From positions 384,001 to 448,000 of IMG/VR virus record IMGVR_UViG_3300049988_000286: DNA of 64,000 bases; one strand, 5' to 3'. Made by a program: the position numbers and the translations under genes. This document shows positions 9,055 through 59,674 of this stretch, piece by piece; the stretch's first letter is position 1; every line of letters begins with the position of its first letter. The notes beneath the pieces are model-generated. The model did not search any database, had not been told where the DNA came from, and worked only from the letters and a program-made list of their open reading frames with translations. The stretch is from a virus (Duplodnaviria > Caudoviricetes).

Positions 9055-9149
9055 TGGTACGCCCGGAGGGATTCGAACCCCCAACCGTTCCGCGATCTGC
9101 GGATCATGAGGTATAAGCTCACCGCTCTAACCAATTGAGCTACGGGCGC
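9055..9149 (-). tRNA. tRNA-Ile(UAU) with long variable arm
   Basis: Cloverleaf GCGCCCG/CGGGCGT, anticodon loop CT-TAT-AC, variable arm CCGC-AGATC-GCGG, encoded CCA. Confidence 0.85.
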
Positions 9150-9183
9150 ACGAGAGCCTTGTGGCTCGATCGTCGTCGTAGCT

Positions 9184-9201
9184 TCATATCAACTGGTGCA
9201 T
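9184..9201 (-). CDS. leader minigene MHQLI (sensor codon ATA)
   Basis: TAAATA(9207-9212)+5 nt+ATG CAC CAG TTG ATA TGA, 34 nt upstream of tRNA-Ile(UAU). Confidence 0.55.
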   Translation of the reverse strand: MHQLI

Positions 9202-9209
9202 GTCTCTAT

Positions 9210-9572
9210 TTAGCGCAACGCCGCGTGGCGCGCAATAAGGATCGAGGGTAACCCCCGGCCGCGCTGCTGGCATGACCAATCCCCATACCCATCATAAGTG
9301 AGCGCGGGTTCGAGAAGTTGCAGCAAGGGTACATCGCTCTCGTCAGCGACGAACGCGAGGAAATGATTGTGCTCGACGCCGTAGCGGAACATCGCCTCTT
9401 CGCTATTCAGCCGAAGCCAAGTATCTACCTTCTCGGCCATCAGGTAGAAGGGCGGCATATCGGCGACGCTCACCGTCTTCTTTTCGTTCCAGCCCCGAAT
9501 GTAGTAGGACAAACGATGCCAACTCCGGTTGATCAACCGAGTATAGGAAAAGCGTGTCGTATCTCGGTTCAT
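9210..9572 (-). CDS. hypothetical protein (family-A-like)
   Basis: DTWLRLN...FVADESDVPLL; ATGA coupling to upstream gene. Confidence 0.55.
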   Translation of the reverse strand: MNRDTTRFSYTRLINRSWHRLSYYIRGWNEKKTVSVADMPPFYLMAEKVDTWLRLNSEEAMFRYGVEHNHFLAFVADESDVPLLQLLEPALTYDGYGDWSCQQRGRGLPSILIARHAALR

Positions 9573-10393: not shown

Positions 10394-10485
10394 CCGCGAT
10401 CGGTATCAAGTCCGCCTCCGAGCGCGAGCACGAACAGGGCGGGGACGATGAGCGCCATCGAGAGCGCCAATTTAATTCTCTCCAT
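10390..10485 (-). CDS. 31-aa membrane peptide
   Basis: GGAGG SD, one hydrophobic helix. Confidence 0.5.
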   Translation of the reverse strand: MERIKLALSMALIVPALFVLALGGGLDTDRG

Positions 10486-10541
10486 ACGATCCTCCACGAA
10501 TATGAGGTATCGTAGCCGTGCCGATCGTCTTTGTGCAATAT

Positions 10542-10829
10542 CTATGAGAAGGCTAGATAGCAGAGTTCCGCATCGACGGGATCGGCGAAGCAAAGTAGAT
10601 TATGCGATCTGCCGTGTTGCCGCCAAAGCCCCGAATTGCTCGCACACCACTCGTGCACGCGCGTCGGCATACCGTCAAAGAGCACCTGTGTCCAAACCGT
10701 ATGCCCGGCGTGGACGCGTTGCGGTATGACTGCCAAGGCCTTGTATGTTCTTGGCTGGAGGAGGTCGATAGGACGCCACCCCCTCATTGCCGCTTTCGAT
10801 AGCCACGGCAACGGCATCAACTTCGTCAC
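10542..10829 (-). CDS. paralogue family A protein
   Basis: HEWCASNSGLW...CFADPVDAELCYLAFS. Confidence 0.7.
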   Translation of the reverse strand: MTKLMPLPWLSKAAMRGWRPIDLLQPRTYKALAVIPQRVHAGHTVWTQVLFDGMPTRVHEWCASNSGLWRQHGRSHNLLCFADPVDAELCYLAFS

Positions 10830-11041
10830 GAAACCGAAACCGTCTCCATGAAGACACGGAGCGCCGCATCGTAACTGTCCGCGTCCATCACGGCGAGACG
10901 CATCTCGGTGATGTCCTGCTGGCTCACCCCACCGCGCCTCATCGCTTCCGCGACCCTCCCCATCAGCGCGCCGGTGTTGCCGCTCGTGCCGGAGAGTTGC
11001 ACCTCAATGTCAGGGAAGCGGGGTTCCTTCATAGTCTCCAC
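10826..11041 (-). CDS. conserved small phage protein
   Basis: PRFPDIEVQLSG..GN..ALMGRV..AMRRGG pattern typical of a small phage protein family. Confidence 0.65.
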   Translation of the reverse strand: METMKEPRFPDIEVQLSGTSGNTGALMGRVAEAMRRGGVSQQDITEMRLAVMDADSYDAALRVFMETVSVS

Positions 11042-11385
11042 TCTCGCTCAAAAGCCTTGTTCTTGATCTGGTTGCGCCGATTCCCGGATCGCGTCAATGC
11101 TATTCCAAGCAACCCGGCGAGCAATCCCACAACGCCGATAATGTAGATGCGATCATGATGCACCCCGTAGCGATAGGCCGCGTATGCCATCATCGCGGCT
11201 GCCCCGAAGCCATAGAGCATCAGGACAAAGCCTAGCATCGTCAGGGGATGAGCGCCCGTGTTGCGCCGACGAGCAACATCATAGACGCTCTTCGCCTCCC
11301 AACCGCGCTGGAAGCTCTGCTGATCAACGGTAGCGTCGTTGAGACGCTCGTAGGCGCGCTGCAAGGCTTGCTGTTCGATGCTCAT
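11029..11385 (-). CDS. membrane protein (2 TM)
   Basis: Two hydrophobic helices. Confidence 0.6.
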   Translation of the reverse strand: MSIEQQALQRAYERLNDATVDQQSFQRGWEAKSVYDVARRRNTGAHPLTMLGFVLMLYGFGAAAMMAYAAYRYGVHHDRIYIIGVVGLLAGLLGIALTRSGNRRNQIKNKAFEREWRL

Positions 11386-13741: not shown

Positions 13742-14107
13742 TTAATCGTCCATCAGCGACATGCCAAGTCCGAGTAGCCCCACCGTCGTCGCGGTCCCGA
13801 GGACCGTTCCCGCCGCACCGGCGAAGAGATCATCGGTGGTGCCCCGTGATGGCTGCTGCATGATCTGGATGGCAGCCAACACCGCGTAGGGATTGTGGGG
13901 CGCGGGTTCACCACGCTGGGCTCGCTTCTCCTCCTCGATGAGCCGCCGCCCCCATGCGATGAGCTTCTCGTTCTGGATGCGGCGTTCCTCGTCGGTCATC
14001 GGCACCGGTTCGGGTCGGGGTTCGACTTTCGGCGAACGCAGACCGAAGTAGAGCATGACGCCAACGCAACCGAGAAACGCGAGTGTGAACCAGTGTAGAA
14101 GGGACAT
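13742..14107 (-). CDS. membrane-anchored hypothetical protein
   Basis: N-terminal TM, AGGAG SD, TTGACC promoter with CGAACT. Confidence 0.6.
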   Translation of the reverse strand: MSLLHWFTLAFLGCVGVMLYFGLRSPKVEPRPEPVPMTDEERRIQNEKLIAWGRRLIEEEKRAQRGEPAPHNPYAVLAAIQIMQQPSRGTTDDLFAGAAGTVLGTATTVGLLGLGMSLMDD

Positions 14108-14150
14108 AATCTTCTCCTTTACGTCCCTTTACACCATCGTTATAGTTCGG

Positions 14151-14408
14151 TCAACGCCAATCGCCCATGTCGAACACGCGACCGAGATAGATACGGACAA
14201 TCTCGTAATCACGCTCACGGATGATCACGCAATAAAGACCGGGCGCGTTTCCGAGATCATCATCCCGAAGCTTTCCTAGAATCGCACGACTGCCCTTGAG
14301 CCAAGATGGTAGACCGCCTTTCCACAACATCCCAACATCGTTGGCGCGGCACCATCGGGCGAACGGGACGATCCCCGCCTTGATCATGATTCTTCGGTTC
14401 ACACGCAC
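14151..14408 (-). CDS. paralogue family B protein
   Basis: ARWCRAN...GSR...VIIRERDYEIVRIYLG. Confidence 0.65.
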   Translation of the reverse strand: MRVNRRIMIKAGIVPFARWCRANDVGMLWKGGLPSWLKGSRAILGKLRDDDLGNAPGLYCVIIRERDYEIVRIYLGRVFDMGDWR

Positions 14409-14638
14409 ACCAGATTGCCACCAAGGTATTCCCGCACGGCTTTGAGGTCACGATCCCGGATGATATAAGCACGGATGAGCAACACGTGACCCGCAAATTC
14501 GTAACCGTGCCAGCGACGCGATCCTACGCGGGTCACCACGAACGGATCAAGGGTTTTATATTCCCAGAGGATTGGTATGCGCATCGCCCGGCACCAAACC
14601 ATCAAGGACGGTGGCCGCGCTTGCGTGATGACCCTCAT
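14399..14638 (-). CDS. paralogue family B protein
   Basis: MVWCRAMRIP...GSR...IIRDRDLKAVREYLG. Confidence 0.65.
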   Translation of the reverse strand: MRVITQARPPSLMVWCRAMRIPILWEYKTLDPFVVTRVGSRRWHGYEFAGHVLLIRAYIIRDRDLKAVREYLGGNLVCV

Positions 14639-15182
14639 CGAAGCACCCTCAAATTACACAGATAGAGGGTAAGGAGGTCGATCCGTGATTGCCTTGAATT
14701 ATATTGCACCGAAGAGGAGGATGCGGCACTGATCAAGCTGGCTTTCGAGGGTATGTAATGTTCTGGGTTCTTTGCGAGAACGACGACGATCAGGACGACC
14801 CGAACGTCGTGTTCGACACAGATGGCAGTTTGGCTGTCTTTACAGATGCGGAGGCCTGATGAAGCTATGTTGGATGGGGATTCATCGCTACATGACATGG
14901 TGGCCCCCATATCTAGATCATAAGGTTGTTCAGCAGCCACAATGGACTTCATGTCGTTATTGCGGCAAATGGAAAAGACGCTACACGGTAAAGTGAACGG
15001 CATGGCGTCAAAGCCGTCCCCACCACCGCCCTCCTTTGTCATGCGATTGTTCTGTGAATACGCGAAAAATCTCCATTGATGTGCTGTCCCGCTCGCACAA
15101 TCATGCAGATGGGAACTGCATTACGCCGCCCCCATTCGAGCACATCTATGAGCGAACAATCGACTTCGATGATCCGGTTCAT
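14635..15182 (-). pseudogene. split family B paralogue (5' half 15039-15182, 3' half about 14635-14700)
   Basis: MNRIIEVD..LEWGRRNAVP stops at 15039; ...RIDLLTLYLCN appears about 340 nt further on. Confidence 0.5.
14859..14996 (+). CDS. 45-aa Zn-binding peptide (DUF1660-like)
   Basis: GGAGG SD; MKLCWMGIHRY...CRYCGKWK. Confidence 0.55.
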   Translation: MKLCWMGIHRYMTWWPPYLDHKVVQQPQWTSCRYCGKWKRRYTVK

Positions 15183-15430
15183 CGCACCACCTCCACTGAT
15201 CCCACATACAGGGTAAGTAGGTCGAAGTCACGATCGCGGACGATGATCCGGTAGGAACGTGATATCCGCGAGAACTTACTATAGCGAGCGAGGATGCGCC
15301 GCGACCCAATCGTCTTCAATTCCGGATTATAATTTAGACGCGGCACATAGAGCAATGCCGGAACGCCAGCGCTGCGGCACCATTCCATCAGGGTGACGAG
15401 GGGAGCGTGGACCTTGATGAGACGGTTCAT
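15179..15430 (-). CDS. paralogue family B protein
   Basis: MNRLIKV..MEWCRSAGVP...GSR...IIVRDRDFDLLTLYVG. Confidence 0.65.
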   Translation of the reverse strand: MNRLIKVHAPLVTLMEWCRSAGVPALLYVPRLNYNPELKTIGSRRILARYSKFSRISRSYRIIVRDRDFDLLTLYVGSVEVVR

Positions 15431-15759
15431 CCATCCATCCCGTTCAACCGTAGAGCGACCTCCTCCGGGGTTCCCAACACGTTGTAGTCCTCCCCCACCT
15501 CCATGACGATCTGGGTAACGCCCGCATCGTATTCCAAGATGGATACGACATGCCGGGGATTGACCCAAACGTTGCCCACGCCCTGCCACGCACCCCACTG
15601 CGCACCGGCCTGCGGCAGTGTAGTGGGGAGACGCTGACGAGCGGCTCGTATGAACGGTATGAACATCCCCCGTGTATGCGCGCGCGGAGACGGGGGTGCA
15701 ATAAAGGCTTCCGGGGATCGATAGTTTGGGGAGGGTGGTGCCCACTGACCGACTTGCAC
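15427..15759 (-). CDS. hypothetical protein with FlbD-like C-terminus
   Basis: WVNPRHVVSILE...TQIVM...VLGTPEEV. Confidence 0.5.
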   Translation of the reverse strand: MQVGQWAPPSPNYRSPEAFIAPPSPRAHTRGMFIPFIRAARQRLPTTLPQAGAQWGAWQGVGNVWVNPRHVVSILEYDAGVTQIVMEVGEDYNVLGTPEEVALRLNGMDG

Positions 15760-15819
15760 GGTCCATCTCCGGGTTACAAATCCGGCACAGCGCTATCTCT
15801 GTTTAGCGGGCAGAAGCAA

Positions 15820-15907
15820 TGGCGGGCGAGGTGGGATTCGAACCCACGGAACCTTGCGGTTCGTCACGTTAGCAGTGTGGTGGTTTCGGCCTCTCACCCA
15901 CTCGCCC
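15820..15907 (-). tRNA. tRNA-Ser(GCU)
   Basis: Class II cloverleaf, loop CT-GCT-AA, G73, CCA; anticodon stem has 27:43 and 31:39 mismatches. Confidence 0.85.
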
Positions 15908-15922
15908 GTATTCTATAGCTGA

Positions 15923-16010
15923 TGGTGGAATCGGTGGGATTCGAACCCACGGAACCTTGCGGTTCACTCGCTTTCCAAGCGAGCCCGATCGGCCACTCTG
16001 GCACGATTCC
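15923..16010 (-). tRNA. tRNA-Ser(GGA)
   Basis: Class II cloverleaf, loop TT-GGA-AA, CCA. Confidence 0.9.
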
Positions 16011-16023
16011 ATATCAGAAACTC

Positions 16024-16113
16024 TGGAGGAGCCGACCCGATTCGAACGGGTGAGACCTTGCGGTCTGCTCGTTTTCAAGACGAGTGCGTTAAACCGGGCT
16101 CCGCCACGGCTCC
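16024..16113 (-). tRNA. tRNA-Ser(UGA)
   Basis: Class II cloverleaf, loop CT-TGA-AA, CCA. Confidence 0.9.
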
Positions 16114-16114
16114 T

Positions 16115-16483
16115 TTATGTCAGACCAAGTTCCTGCATGTCAACCGAAGGAACGGTCCAATTCTTTATCCTTTTACCCCAGATGGCCTTCATCCTCGGTA
16201 AAGTGAGGGGCTCGATCCGAAGAGCGCCGCAATCAGCACCCAAGTAGTCCGCAAGAAACTCATCTCGCGACTGGCGTAATCCTCGTGCATCACCGAAAAC
16301 ATCCTCGCCGAACATGACACCAACATGTCGCGGAACAGTGTCCCAAACATCGTCGAAGATTCCTACTAGGGTTCCGCCATGAAGATCGTGCAGCGTCGCC
16401 GCCATCACCATGCATTCACCGCGTTGATAACGCTCTAGCGCCGACCTGTCATCATCGAAAGCGTCGATCTCAAAAATTCGCAT
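16115..16483 (-). CDS. late protein with putative papain-like Cys-His-Asp triad
   Basis: TAAATA+4 nt+ATG (MRIFEID); GECMVMA...PRHVGV...FGDARG. Confidence 0.55.
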   Translation of the reverse strand: MRIFEIDAFDDDRSALERYQRGECMVMAATLHDLHGGTLVGIFDDVWDTVPRHVGVMFGEDVFGDARGLRQSRDEFLADYLGADCGALRIEPLTLPRMKAIWGKRIKNWTVPSVDMQELGLT

Positions 16484-16494
16484 CTGGTATTTAG

Positions 16495-16569
16495 TGGTGC
16501 CCTCGGAAGGAATCAAACCTTACGTTTCCGACGTACCAAGTCGGCGTTCTATCATTGAACTACGAGGGC
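16495..16569 (-). tRNA. tRNA-Thr(GGU)
   Basis: GCCCTCG/CGAGGGC, stem CCGAC/GTCGG, loop TT-GGT-AC, CCA. Confidence 0.85.
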
Positions 16570-16582
16570 GTAGTTGTTAAAC

Positions 16583-16741
16583 CTATAAATCGATTGAAGG
16601 GTCGATCGTCCCCGCACGGGCGAGCAGATCATCTACCCACCGTCGCTCCTCAATCTCACGCTTGATCTCTTCGATCGCTACGCGTGCGGTCTCGGCATCC
16701 ATGTCGCCGACATCGATGTAATGGATTGTGCGCTCGGTCAC
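16583..16741 (-). CDS. 52-aa hypothetical protein
   Basis: GTG start coupled to upstream stop; MTERTIHYIDVGDMDAE. Confidence 0.45.
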   Translation of the reverse strand: MTERTIHYIDVGDMDAETARVAIEEIKREIEERRWVDDLLARAGTIDPSIDL

Positions 16742-16941
16742 GGGTTCTTCTTCAACTGGCGCTGCAACTGTTCGCCGATGCCGCGAATGGTATCCGCGCC
16801 GGAATAGAGGATCGTCGTCTGCTCACCATTGCTGTGCAGCCAAGTCACCAGTGTAGAGTCCTCGGTGACGAAGTTGGCGTTCTCGATGTAGGCGTCTTCC
16901 AGCGCCTCGAAGACGGTCTTGGTAGGGGCGATATTTGTCAT
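16738..16941 (-). CDS. hypothetical protein
   Basis: GGGGG SD, TTGCCG-18-TATAAG promoter. Confidence 0.55.
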   Translation of the reverse strand: MTNIAPTKTVFEALEDAYIENANFVTEDSTLVTWLHSNGEQTTILYSGADTIRGIGEQLQRQLKKNP

Positions 16942-16978
16942 CCCCCCTTATACCTCGACGGGTCGCCGCGCGGCAATA

Positions 16979-17281
16979 TTAAGCCGTGGTGCGACCAGCG
17001 AACATCGTTGAGCAGAGGACGAAACCGGTCTCGTCATCCAGCATAACGGCGATGCGATCATGCTCAACCACAACGACCGAGTGGAAGATCGCATTCTCGT
17101 GGCACCACCGCTCCATCTCTACGGAGAGGGGCGTGGCACCATCGCCAGTAAGGCCGATCATCAGGCGCTCCGCGTTGAACGTGATCTCGACCGACAGAGG
17201 AGTGTAGAAAGCCCTTGCCGACAACATCTTGTTGATCACCGCATCGACGCTTTGATTCCAGAGATGCGCTTTCGATTTCAT
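16979..17281 (-). CDS. family-A-like protein
   Basis: ERWCHEN...VMLDDETGFVL; TTGACA-17-TACCAA promoter with AGTTCG. Confidence 0.55.
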   Translation of the reverse strand: MKSKAHLWNQSVDAVINKMLSARAFYTPLSVEITFNAERLMIGLTGDGATPLSVEMERWCHENAIFHSVVVVEHDRIAVMLDDETGFVLCSTMFAGRTTA

Positions 17282-17305
17282 CCCCGGTTGGTAATCATGC
17301 GCGAA

Positions 17306-17812
17306 CTATTTGTCAAGGTTTTTCCGGCGGTGCCAATGCTCCTCCATGTGGCAAGTTGGACAAAGGAATTCGAGGTTTGCCATTTCATCAGAACCACCCT
17401 TCGATCGCTCTACAATGTGGTGAACCTGAACAATCTCCGGAATCTTCTCATAGGAACAACGTTCGCATCGTTCCGCACCTTTGAACTCAATCAGCCTAGA
17501 CCTTATTGAGGCGTGTTTTACAACGGCGCTCTTCAGGGGTTTACCTGTCTGTTTATAGTTTATACCGGCACGATGTTTGTTTGAACAGCGTTTGGAGCAG
17601 GTGACACGACTAGCCGCCCCCATGAAGGTCTCTTGGCACACAGGGCAGAGTTTTGGCTTTGAACAGTGTTGTCCAAAGCACGCTCGACTACAGAATACAC
17701 CCACTTTGTCGGTGCCCATACGAGATGGTCGGCGATAAATCGCTTTGCTGCAAACAGAACATTCCGTGTTTGGTGGCGATATGTAACCGGGCTTACTAGG
17801 CATACTCTGCAA
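17306..17812 (-). CDS. HNH endonuclease with N-terminal Zn-ribbon repeats
   Basis: CERC...VHHIVERSKGGSDEMANLEFLCPTCH; several CxxC/CS..C repeats; sits among tRNA genes. Confidence 0.85.
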   Translation of the reverse strand: MQSMPSKPGYISPPNTECSVCSKAIYRRPSRMGTDKVGVFCSRACFGQHCSKPKLCPVCQETFMGAASRVTCSKRCSNKHRAGINYKQTGKPLKSAVVKHASIRSRLIEFKGAERCERCSYEKIPEIVQVHHIVERSKGGSDEMANLEFLCPTCHMEEHWHRRKNLDK

Positions 17813-17851
17813 GGTATGCTAATTTCGCCCGGCAGAGCGATATTAAAATGA

Positions 17852-17941
17852 TGGCGGAGGGCCGAGGACATGCTCCCCACACGATTGCCCGTGCGTTCGG
17901 TTTTCGAGGCCGACCCAGCGCGCTTGTCTGGTTGACCCTCC
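17852..17941 (-). tRNA. tRNA-Ser(CGA) with 8/4 acceptor/T-stem fold
   Basis: 8-bp acceptor GGAGGGTC/GGCCCTCC, 4-bp D stem CCAG/CTGG, loop CT-CGA-AA, V arm, 4-bp T stem GGGG/CCTC, G73, CCA. Confidence 0.8.
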
Positions 17942-17954
17942 GTAACTGTAATCT

Positions 17955-18305
17955 CTATGCCATATTCGGCAAGTTAGGCGCAATCGGGCACCGCGATATC
18001 CTTACCAGAAAGTATCGCGCAGCCACCAAAGCTTTGAGCCGAACCTTGATCGGGACATCCGTCTTCTTGGCGACGCGGAGGCATCGAGCCACGAAATGAA
18101 TATCGGCGATATGTTGGCGACGACGCTTGTCCGCTGCATCGCCGCGATAACTCTTGTCATACTCGCAGTCATGCTTGAAGCACGCTTTGTCGAGTTCATC
18201 GATGGGAGCGCCGCCGCAATTACCCGGCCCGCAATAGTTGCCATGGAAGCGGATGAAGCGCTTCGTTGGTGCTAATGGGGCTTCGAACAGATGGCGGCTG
18301 CGCAT
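17955..18305 (-). CDS. secretory/parvoviral-type phospholipase A2
   Basis: Ca-loop HGNYCGPG and catalytic DKACFKHDCEY; TAAATA+4 nt+ATG. Confidence 0.8.
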   Translation of the reverse strand: MRSRHLFEAPLAPTKRFIRFHGNYCGPGNCGGAPIDELDKACFKHDCEYDKSYRGDAADKRRRQHIADIHFVARCLRVAKKTDVPIKVRLKALVAARYFLVRISRCPIAPNLPNMA

Positions 18306-18413
18306 CTGTTATTTACACTGGCTTGACGGAGTTTGCACCGCAAGGTGTTGGCGTACCGTGGCACCCAGATCGTCGTGAAGAGACCTCCTCTTACCGGAGC
18401 CGACGATCAACCA

Positions 18414-18590
18414 TTACATTTCGTATAGGACTACCGTCCAATCTCGATCATCGAAGTGGTAGCGGCGGTAGTGGACTTGTCCGAAGAGTCCATCGATCCC
18501 GTCGATGTAATCACCGCTATTGGGAACGGTGGGCATGTCGCGCTCACCAAGTATGCGATTGTCGGCATCGCGGAAGATGACGCGGTTCAA
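18414..18590 (-). CDS. 58-aa hypothetical protein
   Basis: TTG start overlapping the bS21 stop; MNRVIFRDADNRILGERDMPTVP. Confidence 0.5.
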   Translation of the reverse strand: MNRVIFRDADNRILGERDMPTVPNSGDYIDGIDGLFGQVHYRRYHFDDRDWTVVLYEM

Positions 18591-18787
18591 CGATCGCGTT
18601 CCGCTCGCTGACGATCGGCTTTCCTCGATCGCTTGACCGCAGCGGCGCGAGCCTTGGCCTTAACTTCGCTGGGCTTCATGTAGTGGGCGCGCTGTTTCAT
18701 TTCACGCAGGATGCCCTCGCGCTGCATCTTGCGCTTCAAGACCTTCAAGGCCTTGTCCATATTCCCGTCCTGAACCGCTACCCGCAT
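18587..18787 (-). CDS. rpsU: ribosomal protein bS21
   Basis: VQDGNMDKALKVLKRKMQREGILREMKQRAHYMKPSE, alphaproteobacterial-type. Confidence 0.92.
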   Translation of the reverse strand: MRVAVQDGNMDKALKVLKRKMQREGILREMKQRAHYMKPSEVKAKARAAAVKRSRKADRQRAERDR

Positions 18788-18807
18788 TGTGTGATCCTTT
18801 CGGAGAC

Positions 18808-18836
18808 GGGCTAGCTGGGAGTTCGGACGAGGGCAA
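18808..18836 (-). promoter_or_regulatory. rpsU promoter with CGAACT box
   Basis: TTGCCC-17-TAGCCC with CGAACT in the spacer. Confidence 0.5.
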
Positions 18837-18844
18837 GAGGGAAG

Positions 18845-18920
18845 TGGAGCCCGAGGTCGGGATTGAACCGACGACCTGTCCCTTACGAGGGGACTGCAAC
18901 TACCACTGTGCTACTCGGGC
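18845..18920 (-). tRNA. tRNA-Thr(CGU)
   Basis: GCCCGAG/CTCGGGC, loop CT-CGT-AA, CCA. Confidence 0.9.
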
Positions 18921-18969
18921 GTGTGAAGGGTTGACAGGGGCTATGCCCCTAGAAGAAAAAATCGGTGAC

Positions 18970-19045
18970 TGGCAGGAGCGCCGAGACTCGAACTCGGAAC
19001 CTACGGGATTGGAAGCCGGTGCTCTACCAATTGAGCTACACTCCT
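18970..19045 (-). tRNA. tRNA-Trp(CCA)
   Basis: AGGAGTG/CGCTCCT, G73, loop TT-CCA-AT; only 3 paired positions in the anticodon stem. Confidence 0.8.
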
Positions 19046-19052
19046 ACAGTCA

Positions 19053-19126
19053 TGGTTGGCACGGGTGGTAATGCTCCACCGTCTCGGCTTTATCAGAACC
19101 TTGCTCTACTTTTGAGCTACGCGCCA
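19053..19126 (-). tRNA. tRNA-Ile(GAU), atypical T-loop AGCATTA
   Basis: TGGCGCG/CGTGCCA, loop CT-GAT-AA, T stem GGTGG/CCACC, CCA. Confidence 0.8.
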
Positions 19127-19156
19127 TCAGTGACAGACAACCGGTCTGTCAGCGGG

Positions 19157-19232
19157 TGGTGGTGACGGCTGGGCTCGAACCAGCGACATACGCGTCATCA
19201 ACACGTCGTTCTTCCAACTGAACTACGCCACC
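19157..19232 (-). tRNA. tRNA-Ile(GAU) with G37
   Basis: GGTGGCG/CGTCACC, stem ACGTG/CGCGT, loop TT-GAT-GA, CCA. Confidence 0.85.
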
Positions 19233-19240
19233 ACATTGAG

Positions 19241-19481
19241 CGTCGCCCGAGACTCATCGACGATGTGCGCACCGCTCCCGTGGGATGTGCGATCTCGTCG
19301 GGTCGTACGTCGGGCGACGACTCCAAACTATCAATCCGGGGAAGCTGCTTCCAAGCGCGTGCTTCATGTCAAAGAGCCCCTGTGGAGGGCGCTTCGGCAG
19401 ATGTTGCTTGGAGAAGGGGACTTCAGGTGTCCCGAACCTCAACCAATACCCGCCTAGAACGGGTATGGCAAACCACCCCGC
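19241..19481 (-). ncRNA. structured RNA between leader peptide and tRNA array (attenuator platform or ncRNA)
   Basis: Hairpins at 19446-19466, 19417-19433, 19349-19414 and a 10-bp stem 19241-19250/19310-19319. Confidence 0.5.
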
Positions 19482-19535
19482 TCACCCGAAGGTGATCGAC
19501 CAACTAATCGTGGTTGAGGAGGTTGTCGTGTTCAT
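19482..19535 (-). CDS. leader peptide MNTTTSSTTISWSITFG
   Basis: 13 consecutive Thr/Ser/Ile/Trp codons matching the downstream tRNA set; ATG 5 nt after TATAAATA. Confidence 0.8.
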   Translation of the reverse strand: MNTTTSSTTISWSITFG

Positions 19536-19540
19536 GCTTT

Positions 19541-19572
19541 TATTTATACCGAAGGGGTCGCCGGGCTGTCAA
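19541..19572 (-). promoter_or_regulatory. hybrid promoter of tRNA operon (TTGACA-18-TATAAA overlapping TATAAATA)
   Basis: Read directly on minus strand; predicted +1 at or next to the leader ATG. Confidence 0.7.
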
Positions 19573-19586
19573 CACCTAAATACAGC

Positions 19587-20909
19587 ATGGCTAGAAAAAT
19601 CACCGACCTTCCGCAGTCTACCCTTTCGGCGACCGATCTCGGTGCTGCCTCCATCCCCGTTTCCAATGTGGGCAGCAACGCCTCGGTGCTGGAACGCGTG
19701 TTGGCGCGCGACTTCATGTCGTTGCTCGGTGGGAGCTATCGCGGCACGTGGAGCGCGTCGCCTTCGCGGCCGTATAACTTCGGCGACATCGTGACTGTCC
19801 TCTCAATCATCACTCCAATCTACTATGTCTGCCTTATCGCGGGCACTACCTCCAATCCCTCTGCGAACACGGGCTGGCAACTGATCAATTCCGTGGTGCG
19901 TGGTACCGATGCTGGACCACCTACAGTCGGGGTAGATGGCCAATTGATCATTCAGGATGGCTTGCTGTATTTCAATAGCAACGGCGCGCGTATTCCGCTG
20001 CTTCGTGGCGACGCCCCGCTATTGTCGAACCAGATCGCGCGTGAGCCGGGGACGATCAACATTCTGGATGATCCAACCTTCGCCAGTGGAAGCACATGGA
20101 CGGTGGTGGGTTTCAATCGGGTGGCGTCAACTAATGACTTCGGTAACGGTTTTGCCTATCAGACTAGCGGCACGGGCAGTTTCAGCCTCAAGTCGAAAAT
20201 GACCATCCCTTACACAAGCGGAGAGCAACAGTACGTACGTTATTTTATAACGAAGACCGCTGATTTCGCGGGTACGATCTCGCTCACGTACATAAAGGCT
20301 AATAAAGACGGCAGCAATGCATCAGCGCAGACGGCTGCCACGATCAACCCGACAACGCTTAATACTTTTAGCTTCGGGCTAGATACTAACTTTTCCAACT
20401 TTGGAAGTGGTAACATTACTGCTTTCGGTGTAGAGGCGACGGTTACGGCAGGATCGATCACCGTATTGAGGCTAGAATATTACAAACCTCTAAATCTCCG
20501 GTATCTACCTACGACGACATCCACGTCGGTGTTCTACTACGGTAACAGCACTTTGCTTACGCCACCGGACACGCTGATCAACGCCAGTAAACCCACTGAT
20601 ATGGGTAGTCTTTCTGGCAACATCACGCTCAACTTCTATGCCTATCGAAGTGCAAATTTCACGCTCACTGGCAACAGCACATTGGTCAATCCATCTGGCG
20701 TCGCGTTCTCCGGTTTCGGTGGACGCATCCGCATTACTCAAGACCCTGCTAACTCTGGCGCGCCTTACACTCTAGCCTATGGGTCGGCGTGGAAGTTTCC
20801 CGGCGGCGCGCCGACGCTCTCTACGACACCGGGGGCGGTTGATCTCTTGGTCTATTTCGTCAACACCGACCTGACCTTTGAGTGCACGCTCGTCAAGGAT
20901 GTGAAGTAA
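19587..20909 (+). CDS. tail fibre / receptor-binding protein
   Basis: TAAATA+4 nt+ATG; MARKITDLP start, CBM5/12-like GTWS..YNFGDIV..YVC..P..WQ, C-terminal TQD..G..TLAY..AWKFPGG.PTLST..GAVDLL. Confidence 0.7.
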   Translation: MARKITDLPQSTLSATDLGAASIPVSNVGSNASVLERVLARDFMSLLGGSYRGTWSASPSRPYNFGDIVTVLSIITPIYYVCLIAGTTSNPSANTGWQLINSVVRGTDAGPPTVGVDGQLIIQDGLLYFNSNGARIPLLRGDAPLLSNQIAREPGTINILDDPTFASGSTWTVVGFNRVASTNDFGNGFAYQTSGTGSFSLKSKMTIPYTSGEQQYVRYFITKTADFAGTISLTYIKANKDGSNASAQTAATINPTTLNTFSFGLDTNFSNFGSGNITAFGVEATVTAGSITVLRLEYYKPLNLRYLPTTTSTSVFYYGNSTLLTPPDTLINASKPTDMGSLSGNITLNFYAYRSANFTLTGNSTLVNPSGVAFSGFGGRIRITQDPANSGAPYTLAYGSAWKFPGGAPTLSTTPGAVDLLVYFVNTDLTFECTLVKDVK

Positions 20910-21427
20910 TGTTCTTCGTCCATCCTTTGTTTGGGAAAGGCGGGGTGTCGCTCAATCCAATTGTGAGCCCCACCGTTGTCGAATCCTCCAATAGTTGGAT
21001 AAACCCCGGCAACGGTCTTTCGCCCAACGGAACCTACACCACCTATAATAGCAATGGCGGGACTACCAATTATTCGGCGGGTAGCTTCCCTGCGACGATT
21101 GTTCCCACTGGAAGTGCCATTAAGGGTATTGAGTTGTACGTTACTGGATACTCAAGCACAGCGAATGTCTGGACGACCGGTCAAATCTATCTTGGTAAAA
21201 CACCGGGAACACGCACAGGGAACAACAAGGGTGATAATGGTTCGGGAGGCAACTTCTGGTCCACGACACCCGAGACGAAAATATTCGGTGGCCCGACCGA
21301 TCTTTGGGGAGAGACGTGGACCGTGGCGGAAGTTCGGGCGCTTTCCATATTTACCGCACCCTCGAACTACCCGTTCGTCAGCGCAACTTTCTACCTCGAT
21401 GGTTACGCGGTTCGCGTTTATACATGA
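20909..21427 (+). CDS. tail-associated beta-rich protein
   Basis: TAATG coupling; S/T/G/N-rich. Confidence 0.6.
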   Translation: MFFVHPLFGKGGVSLNPIVSPTVVESSNSWINPGNGLSPNGTYTTYNSNGGTTNYSAGSFPATIVPTGSAIKGIELYVTGYSSTANVWTTGQIYLGKTPGTRTGNNKGDNGSGGNFWSTTPETKIFGGPTDLWGETWTVAEVRALSIFTAPSNYPFVSATFYLDGYAVRVYT

Positions 21428-59098: not shown

Positions 59099-59129
59099 TT
59101 GACACCCAAAAGCTCGTGTGAGATAAATA
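59099..59129 (+). promoter_or_regulatory. hybrid promoter of Tyr/His tRNA operon
   Basis: TTGACA(59099-59104) and GATAAATA(59122-59129). Confidence 0.65.
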
Positions 59130-59134
59130 CTCCT

Positions 59135-59179
59135 ATGAACACGCAGAGCCATCACACCTATTATCATTACCACGCGTAA
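59135..59179 (+). CDS. leader peptide MNTQSHHTYYHYHA
   Basis: 7 of 8 consecutive codons His/Tyr; upstream of Tyr and His tRNAs; ATG 5 nt after TAAATA. Confidence 0.8.
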   Translation: MNTQSHHTYYHYHA

Positions 59180-59241
59180 GCGGGGTCGTGGTAACGCGTC
59201 CTCGTTTCGGGGACGATGAAGGTGTGAAAGAGCCAGCGTGG
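59167..59241 (+). promoter_or_regulatory. attenuator-like alternative RNA structures
   Basis: TTACCACG(59167-74)/CGTGGTAA(59187-94); CGTCCTC/GGGGACG(59197-59215); competing CCACGC/GCGTGG(59236-41). Confidence 0.6.
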
Positions 59242-59300
59242 CACTCTCCCCATAGTTGAACCCGCGAAGACGCAGATGATTTGCGTATCATGTTGCTAGT

Positions 59301-59384
59301 GGGTCGGCTGGACACGAGTGAGTCCACCTGACTGTAAATCAGACGCTTTGGCTGTGAGGGTGCAAATTCCTTCCCGGCCCACCA
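59301..59384 (+). tRNA. tRNA-Tyr(GUA), atypical D/T loops
   Basis: GGGTCGG/CCGGCCC, A73, loop CT-GTA-AA, V arm, CCA. Confidence 0.8.
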
Positions 59385-59409
59385 AGCAACCAAAGAACAG
59401 TGATCAGGT

Positions 59410-59483
59410 GCGGCCGAGGCTGACTTGGATGAGGCGCGCGGTTGTGATCCGCGAGATAGTGAGTTCGAACCTCACCGGTCGCC
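59410..59483 (+). tRNA. tRNA-His(GUG), no encoded G-1 or CCA
   Basis: GCGGCCG/CGGTCGC, stem CGCGG/CCGCG, loop TT-GTG-AT, canonical T arm, C73. Confidence 0.75.
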
Positions 59484-59502
59484 CCTGAACACTGTTCACC
59501 TT

Positions 59503-59596
59503 GGGAGGTGCCCCCGCTCGCCGGTTGTAACCCGGTGGTCTCTAATAAGGGTGGGAAGCATTGAGGCGATGGGTGCAATTCCTACACCTCCCACCA
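59503..59596 (+). ncRNA. D-armless tRNA-like RNA with GUA anticodon
   Basis: 8-bp acceptor GGGAGGTG/CACCTCCC, A-CCA end, anticodon arm GCCGG-TTGTAAC-CCGGT, 4-bp T stem; no D arm, 33-nt extra region. Confidence 0.65.
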
Positions 59597-59599
59597 CGT

Positions 59600-59674
59600 G
59601 GCGTTGGTAGCTCAATGGTAGAGCGCTCGATTGTGGATCGAGATACGCGGGTTCGATCCCCGTCCTTCGCCCCA
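59600..59674 (+). tRNA. tRNA-His(GUG) with G-1:C73
   Basis: G-1, GCGTTGG/CCTTCGC, loop TT-GTG-GA, CCA. Confidence 0.9.

Follow-up and report, generated by a model that had tools for sequence, protein, structure and literature searches.

Codon-matched short reading frames ahead of phage tRNA clusters: a candidate ribosome-mediated attenuator with tRNA genes as cargo

Leader-peptide attenuators are well known from amino-acid operons, as in thr (Thr/Ile), ilvGMEDA (Ile/Val/Leu), trpL, hisL, pheL and leuL, and T-box riboswitches are tRNA-sensing leaders of aminoacyl-tRNA synthetase and amino-acid genes in Firmicutes. The pheL attenuator has been reviewed (PMC3082878), leaderless poly-cysteine short open reading frames (ORFs) of mycobacteria act as Cys-responsive attenuators in a 'ribulon' (Canestrari et al., bioRxiv 10.1101/834739), and Rho-dependent leader-peptide attenuators are represented by tnaC-tnaA and by the mgtA and mgtCBR leaders (PMC3641672). 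Phage tRNA genes have been viewed as codon-usage supplements and, more recently, as substitutes for those host tRNAs that defence nucleases cleave (PMC10264068, PMC11464382), a literature in which the control of their expression is hardly addressed. Here we describe a locus at positions 15820 to 19572 of a 64,000-nt stretch of phage DNA (hereafter the window; bases 384001-448000 of the 499,572-bp IMG/VR record IMGVR_UViG_3300049988_000286, from a leaf metagenome), in which a short ORF made up largely of Thr, Ser, Ile and Trp codons sits between a promoter and tRNA genes for the same four amino acids. Promoter, leader and the hairpins behind it probably form a ribosome-mediated attenuator, and what is new relative to known attenuators is that tRNA genes are its cargo. 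A full-text literature search found no description of leader-peptide control for tRNA genes, in line with a preliminary description of the locus, made from the sequence alone, whose author knew of no account of such control.

The closest systems are the multivalent thr and ilvGMEDA attenuators, which share with this locus the sensing of several amino acids by one leader. Unlike in amino-acid operons, the cargo here consists of 8-9 tRNA genes and inserted ORFs rather than biosynthesis or transport genes, so the sensed molecule would be the product itself. T-box leaders likewise tie expression to the charging of a specific tRNA through a choice between terminator and antiterminator, but no ribosome takes part in them and the tRNA itself is bound, by a single specifier codon and the T-box bulge, whereas this locus offers an in-frame ORF with 12-13 sensor codons. 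No match to Rfam leader families, the T-box or another cis-regulatory family was found at E<=1 in positions 14000-21000. The locus has the following parts.

19541-19572, minus strand: promoter, with the -35 element TTGACA at 19572-19567, an 18-nt spacer and TATAAATA at 19548-19541
19482-19535, minus strand: leader ORF MNTTTSSTTISWSITFG, 17 codons plus stop (ATG at 19535, TGA at 19484-19482)
18845-19232, minus strand: proximal tRNA block with Ile(GAU), Ile(GAU), Trp(CCA) and Thr(CGU), from ARAGORN, Rfam and Infernal
15820-16569, minus strand: distal tRNA block with Thr(GGU), a 122-aa ORF, then Ser(UGA), Ser(GGA) and Ser(GCU)

The leader reads ATG AAC ACG ACA ACC TCC TCA ACC ACG ATT AGT TGG TCG ATC ACC TTC GGG TGA, and 250 nt separate it from the first tRNA. 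From codon 3 to codon 15 it has an unbroken run of 13 codons for Thr, Ser, Ile or Trp, a claim of the preliminary description that both the sequence and its translation bear out, and codons 4-15 make up the sensor run. With the genome's own amino-acid usage, the probability of finding 13 of 16 post-start residues in this set is ~1e-7 to 1e-6; the 5e-9 given earlier for uniform codon choice was too optimistic, which leaves the conclusion that the run is not due to chance unaffected. The longest I/T/W/S run among the 6,402 short ATG ORFs of the genome is that of the leader (13; the runner-up has 11). Past the third codon, 11 of the 14 codons can be decoded by the downstream anticodons, against an average of 1.5 for the other clusters, and every sensor codon can be read by a tRNA encoded downstream except a single ACA.

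The same arrangement recurs in this genome. ARAGORN found 41 tRNAs in the whole genome, clustered largely by amino acid, and eight of the clusters carry codon-matched leaders, the focal one included. Strict promoters (TTGACA-N15-19 followed by a -10 box) occur at only six sites in the 500-kb genome, and five of these six head tRNA clusters, each with a short ORF right behind the promoter. The seven sister leaders are as follows.

Ahead of Met, Gly, Gly, Arg, Arg, Val, Asn, Ala and Asn: MNTNTTFVAGRGVVANRANRG, strict promoter
Ahead of three Lys: MSTMTLSTRKRKRL (RKRKR), strict promoter
Ahead of three Pro and five Leu: a 47-codon ORF with LPLLPLLPLPLL, strict promoter
Window 59099-59674, plus strand, ahead of Tyr(GUA), His and His: MNTQSHHTYYHYHA, strict promoter
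Ahead of two Gln: VTNSHALLPFEAQRQQR (QRQQR), variant promoter
Ahead of two Glu: MNTTYTLMERERSIG (ERER), variant promoter
Window 9055-9235, minus strand, ahead of Ile(UAU): MHQLI minigene, last codon the rare AUA, variant promoter

The MHQLI minigene ends 34 nt upstream of a 95-nt tRNA-Ile(UAU), and the Tyr(GUA) behind MNTQSHHTYYHYHA was called by relaxed ARAGORN and scored 29 bits with Rfam. No convincing leader was found for the Cys cluster of this genome. In an 8x8 matrix of leaders and clusters, the true pairing was the unique best of 40,320 permutations (56 matches versus a mean of 17), and the Fisher combined P for the within-genome leaders was 7.5e-14. The leaders sample every synonymous codon class of their cargo: four Ser codon types occur in the focal leader, and the Pro/Leu leader samples TTG/CTA/CTG/CTT/CTC and CCA/CCG/CCC.

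Other genomes were scanned (IMG/VR and metagenomes) with the pattern TTGAC-N-TAAATA-N5-ATGAACAC, which carries no sensor-codon information. The exact 20-nt promoter/start pattern had no match in IMG/VR and a looser pattern was required; the scan returned phage contigs of 30-60% GC with a matched leader-tRNA arrangement, listed here together with the two further orthologues L120 and L079.

L051 (41% GC): MNTNTTSITTIWSSTFG, ahead of Ile, Ser(CGA), Trp, Trp, Ile, Ser(UGA) and three Thr
L071: MNTNSSITTTISWSSTIR, ahead of Ile and Trp
L120: MNTISTISTTSWSSTIS, orthologue of the focal leader
L079: MNTNAIISIAASWSSTIIG, orthologue of the focal leader
L053, L069 and L118: MNTNFTSIRLDEREEDTFQR and two relatives, ahead of Asp, Glu and Glu
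L068: MNTVSFIVAPVAIIVAVAAIIAVA, ahead of Val and Ile
L089: MNTNFTSGSSSFKGSSSFFHYYGRKS, ahead of Tyr, Phe, Ser, Gly and Ser
L057: MNTQTALFWRF..., ahead of Trp, Phe and Tyr
L061: MNTKRKFLR..., ahead of Lys

We then counted, under simple wobble rules and skipping the first three codons, how many leader codons are decodable by downstream anticodons. The 20 leader/cluster pairs, the Caulobacter phage phiCbK described below among their sources, gave 145 decodable codons versus 42.8±10.7 under shuffled pairing, and the 12 pairs outside this genome gave 96 versus 33.9±10.0; none of 200,000 shuffles reached the observed value in either case. The preliminary description had named a lack of co-variation between leader codons and tRNA content in related genomes as an outcome that would refute the idea; co-variation was found both within the genome and across unrelated phages, so the idea withstood this test. 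Given that the true pairing is the best possible one here and that the excess holds across genomes, the codon match is not due to chance. Furthermore, the five orthologues (focal, L051, L071, L120 and L079) shuffle the order of T, S, I and W and keep the composition, which argues for a codon sensor and not a functional peptide. Single codons follow the cargo as well: AGU is used in the focal leader and Ser(GCU) is present in its cluster, while the L051 leader is without an AGY codon and no Ser(GCU) was seen on the incomplete L051 contig; ACA occurs twice in the L051 leader, with Thr(UGU) present, and once in the focal leader, for which no Thr(UGU) was found.

A comparable design was found in the Caulobacter phage phiCbK (NC_019405), whose short ORFs mirror the tRNA blocks behind them, for example MSKTYRQFVRQIQVVRNIRAG... 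ahead of Phe, Val, Ile, Ile, Val, Gln and Gln. Like our locus it has a promoter, then a short ORF in which the amino acids of the block abound, and then the tRNA block itself, and like several other leaders it has interspersed Arg codons, but it belongs to another family (a siphovirus of 66% GC), has no MNT start or TAAATA box, and possesses canonical terminators, which are annotated directly upstream of three tRNA blocks. The phiCbK genome paper (PMC3556154) mentions neither 'leader' nor 'attenuat'. A scan of 185,579 cellular genomes gave 24 pattern matches, judged to be chance, and in none of them does a tRNA cluster stand behind a short ORF; match L146 combines a 48-codon ORF with a single tRNA-Leu 14 nt further on. 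The pattern TGGTCNNNCACCTTCGGGTGA was rejected, as it matched two unrelated sequences besides L051.

Several features bear on whether the leader is translated. As judged from its sequence, the promoter is a sigma-70-type -35 element joined to the phage's own TAAATA box; the layout noted earlier, with an 18-nt spacer before TATAAATA and 5 nt between it and the ATG, is indeed what the minus strand reads from 19572 to 19482, the 5 nt being AAAGC. TATAAATA is the T4 late-promoter consensus. Throughout the genome, 119 of 171 TAAATA hexamers have an ATG or GTG start 4-7 nt further on, and these starts mostly head long ORFs, the large terminase among them, so that about 100 long ORFs stand in such a register; the phage thus seems to make many leaderless mRNAs from T4-late-like TAAATA promoters. 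The tRNA leaders have the identical TAAATA-to-ATG register, with the -35 TTGACA added. No Shine-Dalgarno sequence precedes the leader ATG and, because the ATG also stands 5 nt behind TAAATA, the leader is probably leaderless; the register shared with the long ORFs makes the ATG a credible start codon and leader translation credible. The mycobacterial Cys 'ribulon' likewise has a leaderless short ORF in first place, senses decoding speed through a codon run and repeats one design at many loci; our locus differs from it in that the next genes are tRNAs, an RNA cargo without a ribosome-binding site. The lack of such a site ahead of the leader, together with the fact that promoter and codons 1-3 (MNT) are conserved as DNA between cassettes whose cargo differs, would also suit an untranslated ORF, with ATGAACAC as the initial transcribed sequence of a shared cassette that acts as structured RNA only and a codon match that is coincidental or a by-product. 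This is very improbable in our view, given that chance is excluded by the permutation, Fisher and codon-level tests, that the match is in frame with the ATG and has a stop codon at its end in every case, that orthologues alter nucleotide order and keep composition, that the same register heads so many long ORFs and that none of the cellular matches shows the arrangement.

The RNA behind the leader supplies the second part of the evidence. From the start up to the first tRNA, 305 nt of RNA are more structured than shuffled sequences (z = -4.06, minimum-energy fold) and contain the following elements.

19469-19499, minus strand: helix 1:2, codons 13-15 (UCGAUCACC) with GGUGA + GCGGGGUGGUUUG across a UUCG loop; -10.9 kcal/mol
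19459-19481, minus strand: helix 2:3, GAGCGGGGUGG with CCAUACCCGUUC; -14.5 kcal/mol, orthologues -13.2 to -16.2
19443-19468, minus strand: helix 3:4, CCAUACCCG with CGGGUAUUGG; -12.9 kcal/mol, kept in orthologues
19437-19445, minus strand: UGGUUGAGG, pairing perfectly with codons 6-9 (CCUCAACCA, 19519-19511) or imperfectly with the C-rich tract
19382-19421, minus strand: C-rich, G-poor tract (C 0.47, G 0.15), candidate Rho loading site
19368-19390, minus strand: hairpin GCCCU-CCACA-GGGGC followed by UCUUUGAC, conserved element and weak candidate terminator
19241-19319, minus strand: long stem-loop with base CGUCGCCCGA / UCGGGCGACG in the minimum-energy fold, abutting the first tRNA

Segment 1 lies inside the ORF and segment 2 (GCGGGGUGGUUUG, 19481-19469) immediately behind the stop codon, which itself is held in the GGUGA of the 3' strand of helix 1:2; segment 4 is a near-copy of segment 2, and segment 3 of the orthologues is CCAUACCCG-like. 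The three helices are mutually exclusive in all five orthologues, at -9 to -17 kcal/mol, in a trp-type layout. Because a MAFFT alignment of the five is out of register at the stop-codon hairpin, helices were compared sequence by sequence; the hairpin is present in 5/5 with differing sequences (CACC/GGUG, UACC/GGUA, CGUCAACU/AGUUGACG and CGUCAACC/GGUUGACG). Helix 1:2 is a candidate pause or 'anti-antiterminator' hairpin, and helix 2:3, which requires a ribosome-free segment 2 and forms in a constrained fold when the ribosome is held mid-leader, is a candidate antiterminator in the model. The pairings already pointed out in the preliminary description exist, and that of CCUCAACCA with UGGUUGAGG is perfect in the minimum-energy fold. 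With amino-acid operon attenuators the locus shares the 5' short ORF, the run of sensor codons, a segment 2 right behind the stop, exclusive 1:2, 2:3 and 3:4 helices and, in sister leaders, a 3:4 helix that is an intrinsic terminator. It is unlike them in that the mRNA looks leaderless, no U-tract follows the focal 3:4, and the phage reuses the element as a cassette in which the codons are swapped.

Further elements of the spacer are conserved. A C/G skew is found at the place of the C-rich tract in L071 (C 0.35, G 0.07) and L051 (C 0.28, G 0.10), and a small hairpin also occurs downstream of helix 3:4. In place of the GCCCU-CCACA-GGGGC hairpin, L051, L071 and L120 have one of different sequence plus UCUUUGA, and the focal hairpin itself, with TCTTTGACAT, is found in the leader region of the Met/Gly/Arg/Val/Asn/Ala cluster. 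The long stem-loop is retained in L071 as GGUCGUCGCUCAA / UUGGGCGACGACC, with both strands changed, and is possibly a processing or insulating element. Behind MNTQSHHTYYHYHA, the same GCGGGGU start of segment 2 follows the stop codon, likewise without a U-tract after 3:4.

From the anatomy of the locus, the co-variation and the alternative helices, we infer leader translation, stalling, the direction of control and a termination step as follows. Transcription would begin at or beside the AUG and a ribosome would translate the 17-codon leader. Under fast decoding, the ribosome at the stop codon would cover segment 2 and let helix 3:4 form; the 5' part of the leader would then re-pair with UGGUUGAGG, and the transcript would be ended, or not matured, before the tRNAs; termination would take place at a weak intrinsic site or through Rho, to which the C-rich tract would now be exposed. 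With charged tRNA for Thr, Ser, Ile or Trp in short supply, slow decoding would stall the ribosome within the leader, where its position on the sensor codons would cover segment 1 and leave segment 2 free for segment 3; the C-rich tract would be sequestered and RNA polymerase would continue into the tRNA genes. The net effect would be negative feedback on the supply of these tRNAs.

The output step is clearest in the sister leaders. The Pro/Leu leader has a canonical terminator (-25.8 kcal/mol plus U6), and canonical intrinsic terminators also lie between leader and tRNA in L053, L057, L069, L089 and L118. A folding scan was made with an equilibrium model in which the ribosome footprint is occluded, which is a crude representation. 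In this model, the Pro/Leu terminator formed with a probability of 0.96 when the RNA was free; the value fell to 0.0 when the A site stood at codons 28-30, within the Leu/Pro run, and was 1.0 for a ribosome at the stop. The L057, L089 and Glu leaders switched in much the same way, losing the terminator only with the ribosome on the sensor codons. At the focal locus, helix 3:4 had a probability of 0.2-0.6 with the ribosome at codons 10-13 and 0.9 at the stop; the L051 values were 0-0.4 at codons 5-14 and 0.9-1.0 from codon 15. The hairpin with UCUUUGAC was rejected as a regulated terminator as it did not switch in the scan, and it is for this reason that we moved to the 1:2/2:3/3:4 reading. In the model, 0.2-0.3 of the C-rich tract was unpaired while the ribosome stood on sensor codons and 0.6 when it had reached the final codons or the stop, a modest effect that fits a Rho-dependent output. 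In Rho-dependent attenuators, leader translation decides Rho loading on a downstream C-rich site, a possible output here too; unlike in tnaC-tnaA, mgtA and mgtCBR, only a short candidate tract (~40 nt) is present and the cargo is tRNA. Weak intrinsic termination, Rho and RNA processing are thus all candidates for the focal output.

If RNA processing were the output, a translated, codon-matched sensor would act post-transcriptionally: the position of the ribosome would refold the ~250-nt spacer and change cleavage, 5' maturation or stability of the precursor tRNA (access of RNase E, III or P) rather than termination. No canonical terminator exists at the focal locus, the conserved long stem-loop abuts the first tRNA, and the Gln and Ile(UAU) leaders stop 27-35 nt from the tRNA without a U-tract, so that a terminating ribosome would sit almost on the precursor. 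We nevertheless consider this variant unlikely, as most members of the family have canonical intrinsic terminators between leader and tRNA, the annotators of phiCbK independently predicted terminators just upstream of three tRNA blocks, and no cleavage signal was identified. The same terminators would be unexplained by another alternative, namely a codon match selected without regulation, in which a 'priming' ORF loads ribosomes and shields the transcript from Rho or 5'-end-dependent decay and has codons chosen only for efficient translation once phage tRNAs are present. The position of the leader at the extreme 5' end and the general observation that untranslated transcripts are natural Rho targets agree with such a role, but it would also leave unexplained why the 1:2/2:3/3:4 alternatives are conserved, the stop codon lying in 1:2, and why all synonymous codon classes of the cargo are sampled, and we find it improbable.

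The attenuator first proposed in the preliminary description is thus supported by codon-anticodon co-variation, by exclusive helices in five orthologues and by sister terminators. A number of observations weigh against ribosome-mediated attenuation. Focal helix 3:4 stands where a trp-type attenuator has its terminator but is followed by the tail UUGAGGUU and not by a U-tract, so that it is no intrinsic terminator, and no intrinsic terminator was predicted on the minus strand from 19900 to 15500, just as the earlier reading had seen no U-tract terminator. Only one focal hairpin comes with a short U-run (UCUUUG), and it showed no switching in the folding scan; modelled 3:4 switching is partial at the focal locus and hardly any or absent in L071, and the sister terminators of L053, L069 and L061 show no switching in the folding model. 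The C-rich tract is only ~40 nt long and the modelled change in its exposure is modest. The internal TAAATA-ATG gene starts at 18315 and 16493 (minus strand) may drive the distal Ser and Thr(GGU) tRNAs without the leader, and amino-acid starvation would also stall the ribosome, a situation for which extra tRNA is no remedy. In one RNA library, contigs were found only at 16972-17150 and 17547-17719 and none over the leader; these contigs could be DNA carry-over. Finally, the mixed tRNA clusters of Agrobacterium phage Atu_ph07 (large terminase, TerL, 52%) were screened and showed no codon-matched short-ORF leaders. This phage and Sinorhizobium phage Phosso are the nearest cultured relatives by terminase (~51-52% identity); TerL relatives in IMG/VR have at most 37% identity.

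The individual genes of the cargo were called as follows, including the protein-coding inserts.

19232-19157, minus strand: tRNA-Ile(GAU), default ARAGORN and Rfam
19126-19053, minus strand: second tRNA-Ile(GAU), Rfam 19126-19056 at 45.5 bits, anticodon from relaxed ARAGORN
19045-18970, minus strand: tRNA-Trp(CCA), 8-nt anticodon loop in ARAGORN, 7-nt loop with anticodon CCA in Infernal (19045-18973)
18920-18845, minus strand: tRNA-Thr(CGU), default ARAGORN and Rfam
16583-18787, minus strand: protein-coding inserts in the tRNA region (HNH endonuclease, phospholipase-A2-like ORF, small ORFs)
18305-17955, minus strand: phospholipase-A2-like ORF, Pfam Phospholip_A2_4 3.5e-7
17941-17852, minus strand: candidate tRNA-Ser(CGA), relaxed ARAGORN only, with a good acceptor stem and CCA end
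17812-17306, minus strand: HNH endonuclease ORF, Pfam HNH 5.6e-12
16569-16495, minus strand: tRNA-Thr(GGU), default ARAGORN and Rfam
16113-16024, minus strand: tRNA-Ser(UGA), default ARAGORN and Rfam
16010-15923, minus strand: tRNA-Ser(GGA), default ARAGORN and Rfam
15907-15820, minus strand: tRNA-Ser(GCU), default ARAGORN and Rfam

The tRNAs listed in the preliminary description were recovered as two Ile, Trp, Thr(CGU), Thr(GGU) and Ser(UGA/GGA/GCU), with the exception of Ser(CGA), which is a weak candidate only, because it was seen solely by relaxed ARAGORN and fell below the Rfam tRNA model even at E<=10; it occupies the gap between the HNH and phospholipase-A2-like ORFs. The Trp(CCA) reading is reasonable, since in the Infernal alignment the loop has the usual 7 nt, with CCA as anticodon, and is closed by a C:C mismatch. 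The 122-aa ORF of the distal block has its own TAAATA start at 16493 (minus strand). The focal inserts look like later insertions, because the Ser and Thr genes of L051 follow with fewer inserts. Between leader and tRNAs, L051 carries at 10445-11089 (plus strand) a release-factor-like ORF with a GGQ motif, and upstream of it a fragment resembling the N-terminal part of the same domain, both read by eye. A 38-codon ATG frame in the focal spacer (MKHALGSS...) was rejected as a gene, the protein not being conserved in L071 by eye.

Other observations concern the leaders and tRNAs of this genome and its relatives. Arg codons regularly alternate with sensor codons (RKRKR, QRQQR, ERER, DEREED, FWRF and QFVRQIQVVRNIR; genome 267615, 68432 and 453685, contigs L053, L057 and L061, and phiCbK L123:7400-7470), possibly reflecting slower passage of a positive peptide or a need for GC-rich pairing. 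Amber-suppressor-type tRNAs with anticodon CUA occur at genome 102238-102314 (plus strand) and 106351-106425 (minus strand), and likewise two in G001, a hint that the phage may read UAG as sense in part of its genome. Some tRNAs other than Ser/Leu are 87-95 nt long (Met, Arg, Cys, Gln and Ile-UAU; genome 25686-25776, 26983-27073, 52274-52364, 68172-68259 and 393055-393149), which suggests insertions or extra arms.

As for promoters and neighbouring genes, the sixth strict sigma-70-like promoter of the genome, TTGACA-17-TATAAATA at 15527 (plus strand), has no tRNA cluster in the next 60 nt. The motif UCUUUGACAU stands right after a hairpin at window 19368-19377 (minus strand), genome 25428 (plus strand), in L051 and in L071, and contains TTGACA with no -10 box behind; another TTGACA, within UCUUUGACAUG, was discarded as a promoter since no -10 box follows it. 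A divergent 440-aa gene starts at 19587 (plus strand) from its own TAAATA box, the pair of box and start codon being at 19571-19590; relatives of its protein matched only the C-terminal domain and were uninformative. A large family of paralogous ORFs starting MRNWINLVE, MRDLINLFE or MRNFIDI... lies right behind TAAATA boxes, with examples at genome 32278(-), 66923(-), 104915(-), 349157(+) and 349820(+). In public runs, strain variants of the leader were present in DNA samples: variant contigs for window 15800-19700 came from the phyllosphere metagenome X3 and from runs X2 and X4, and one that spans 19300-19555 differs at 19 positions and has 6 indels, so there are close relatives whose leaders have diverged.

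In diverse phages, the unit of promoter, leaderless codon-matched mini-ORF and RNA switch may well be a modular, exchangeable 'tRNA-demand sensor' cassette that would give each tRNA group its own feedback and have it made upon slow decoding, a state that could arise when defence nucleases cut host tRNAs or when the host pool is degraded. Because phiCbK on Caulobacter has the same design, the idea is directly testable. If true, the ribosome would gauge tRNA supply and transcription would correct it, separately for each isoacceptor group, which would explain the sorting of tRNAs by amino acid in this phage; the leaders would be natural, compact sensors of decoding capacity for chosen codons, and their cargo-specific codon sets would be a readable record of the tRNAs that each cassette monitors.

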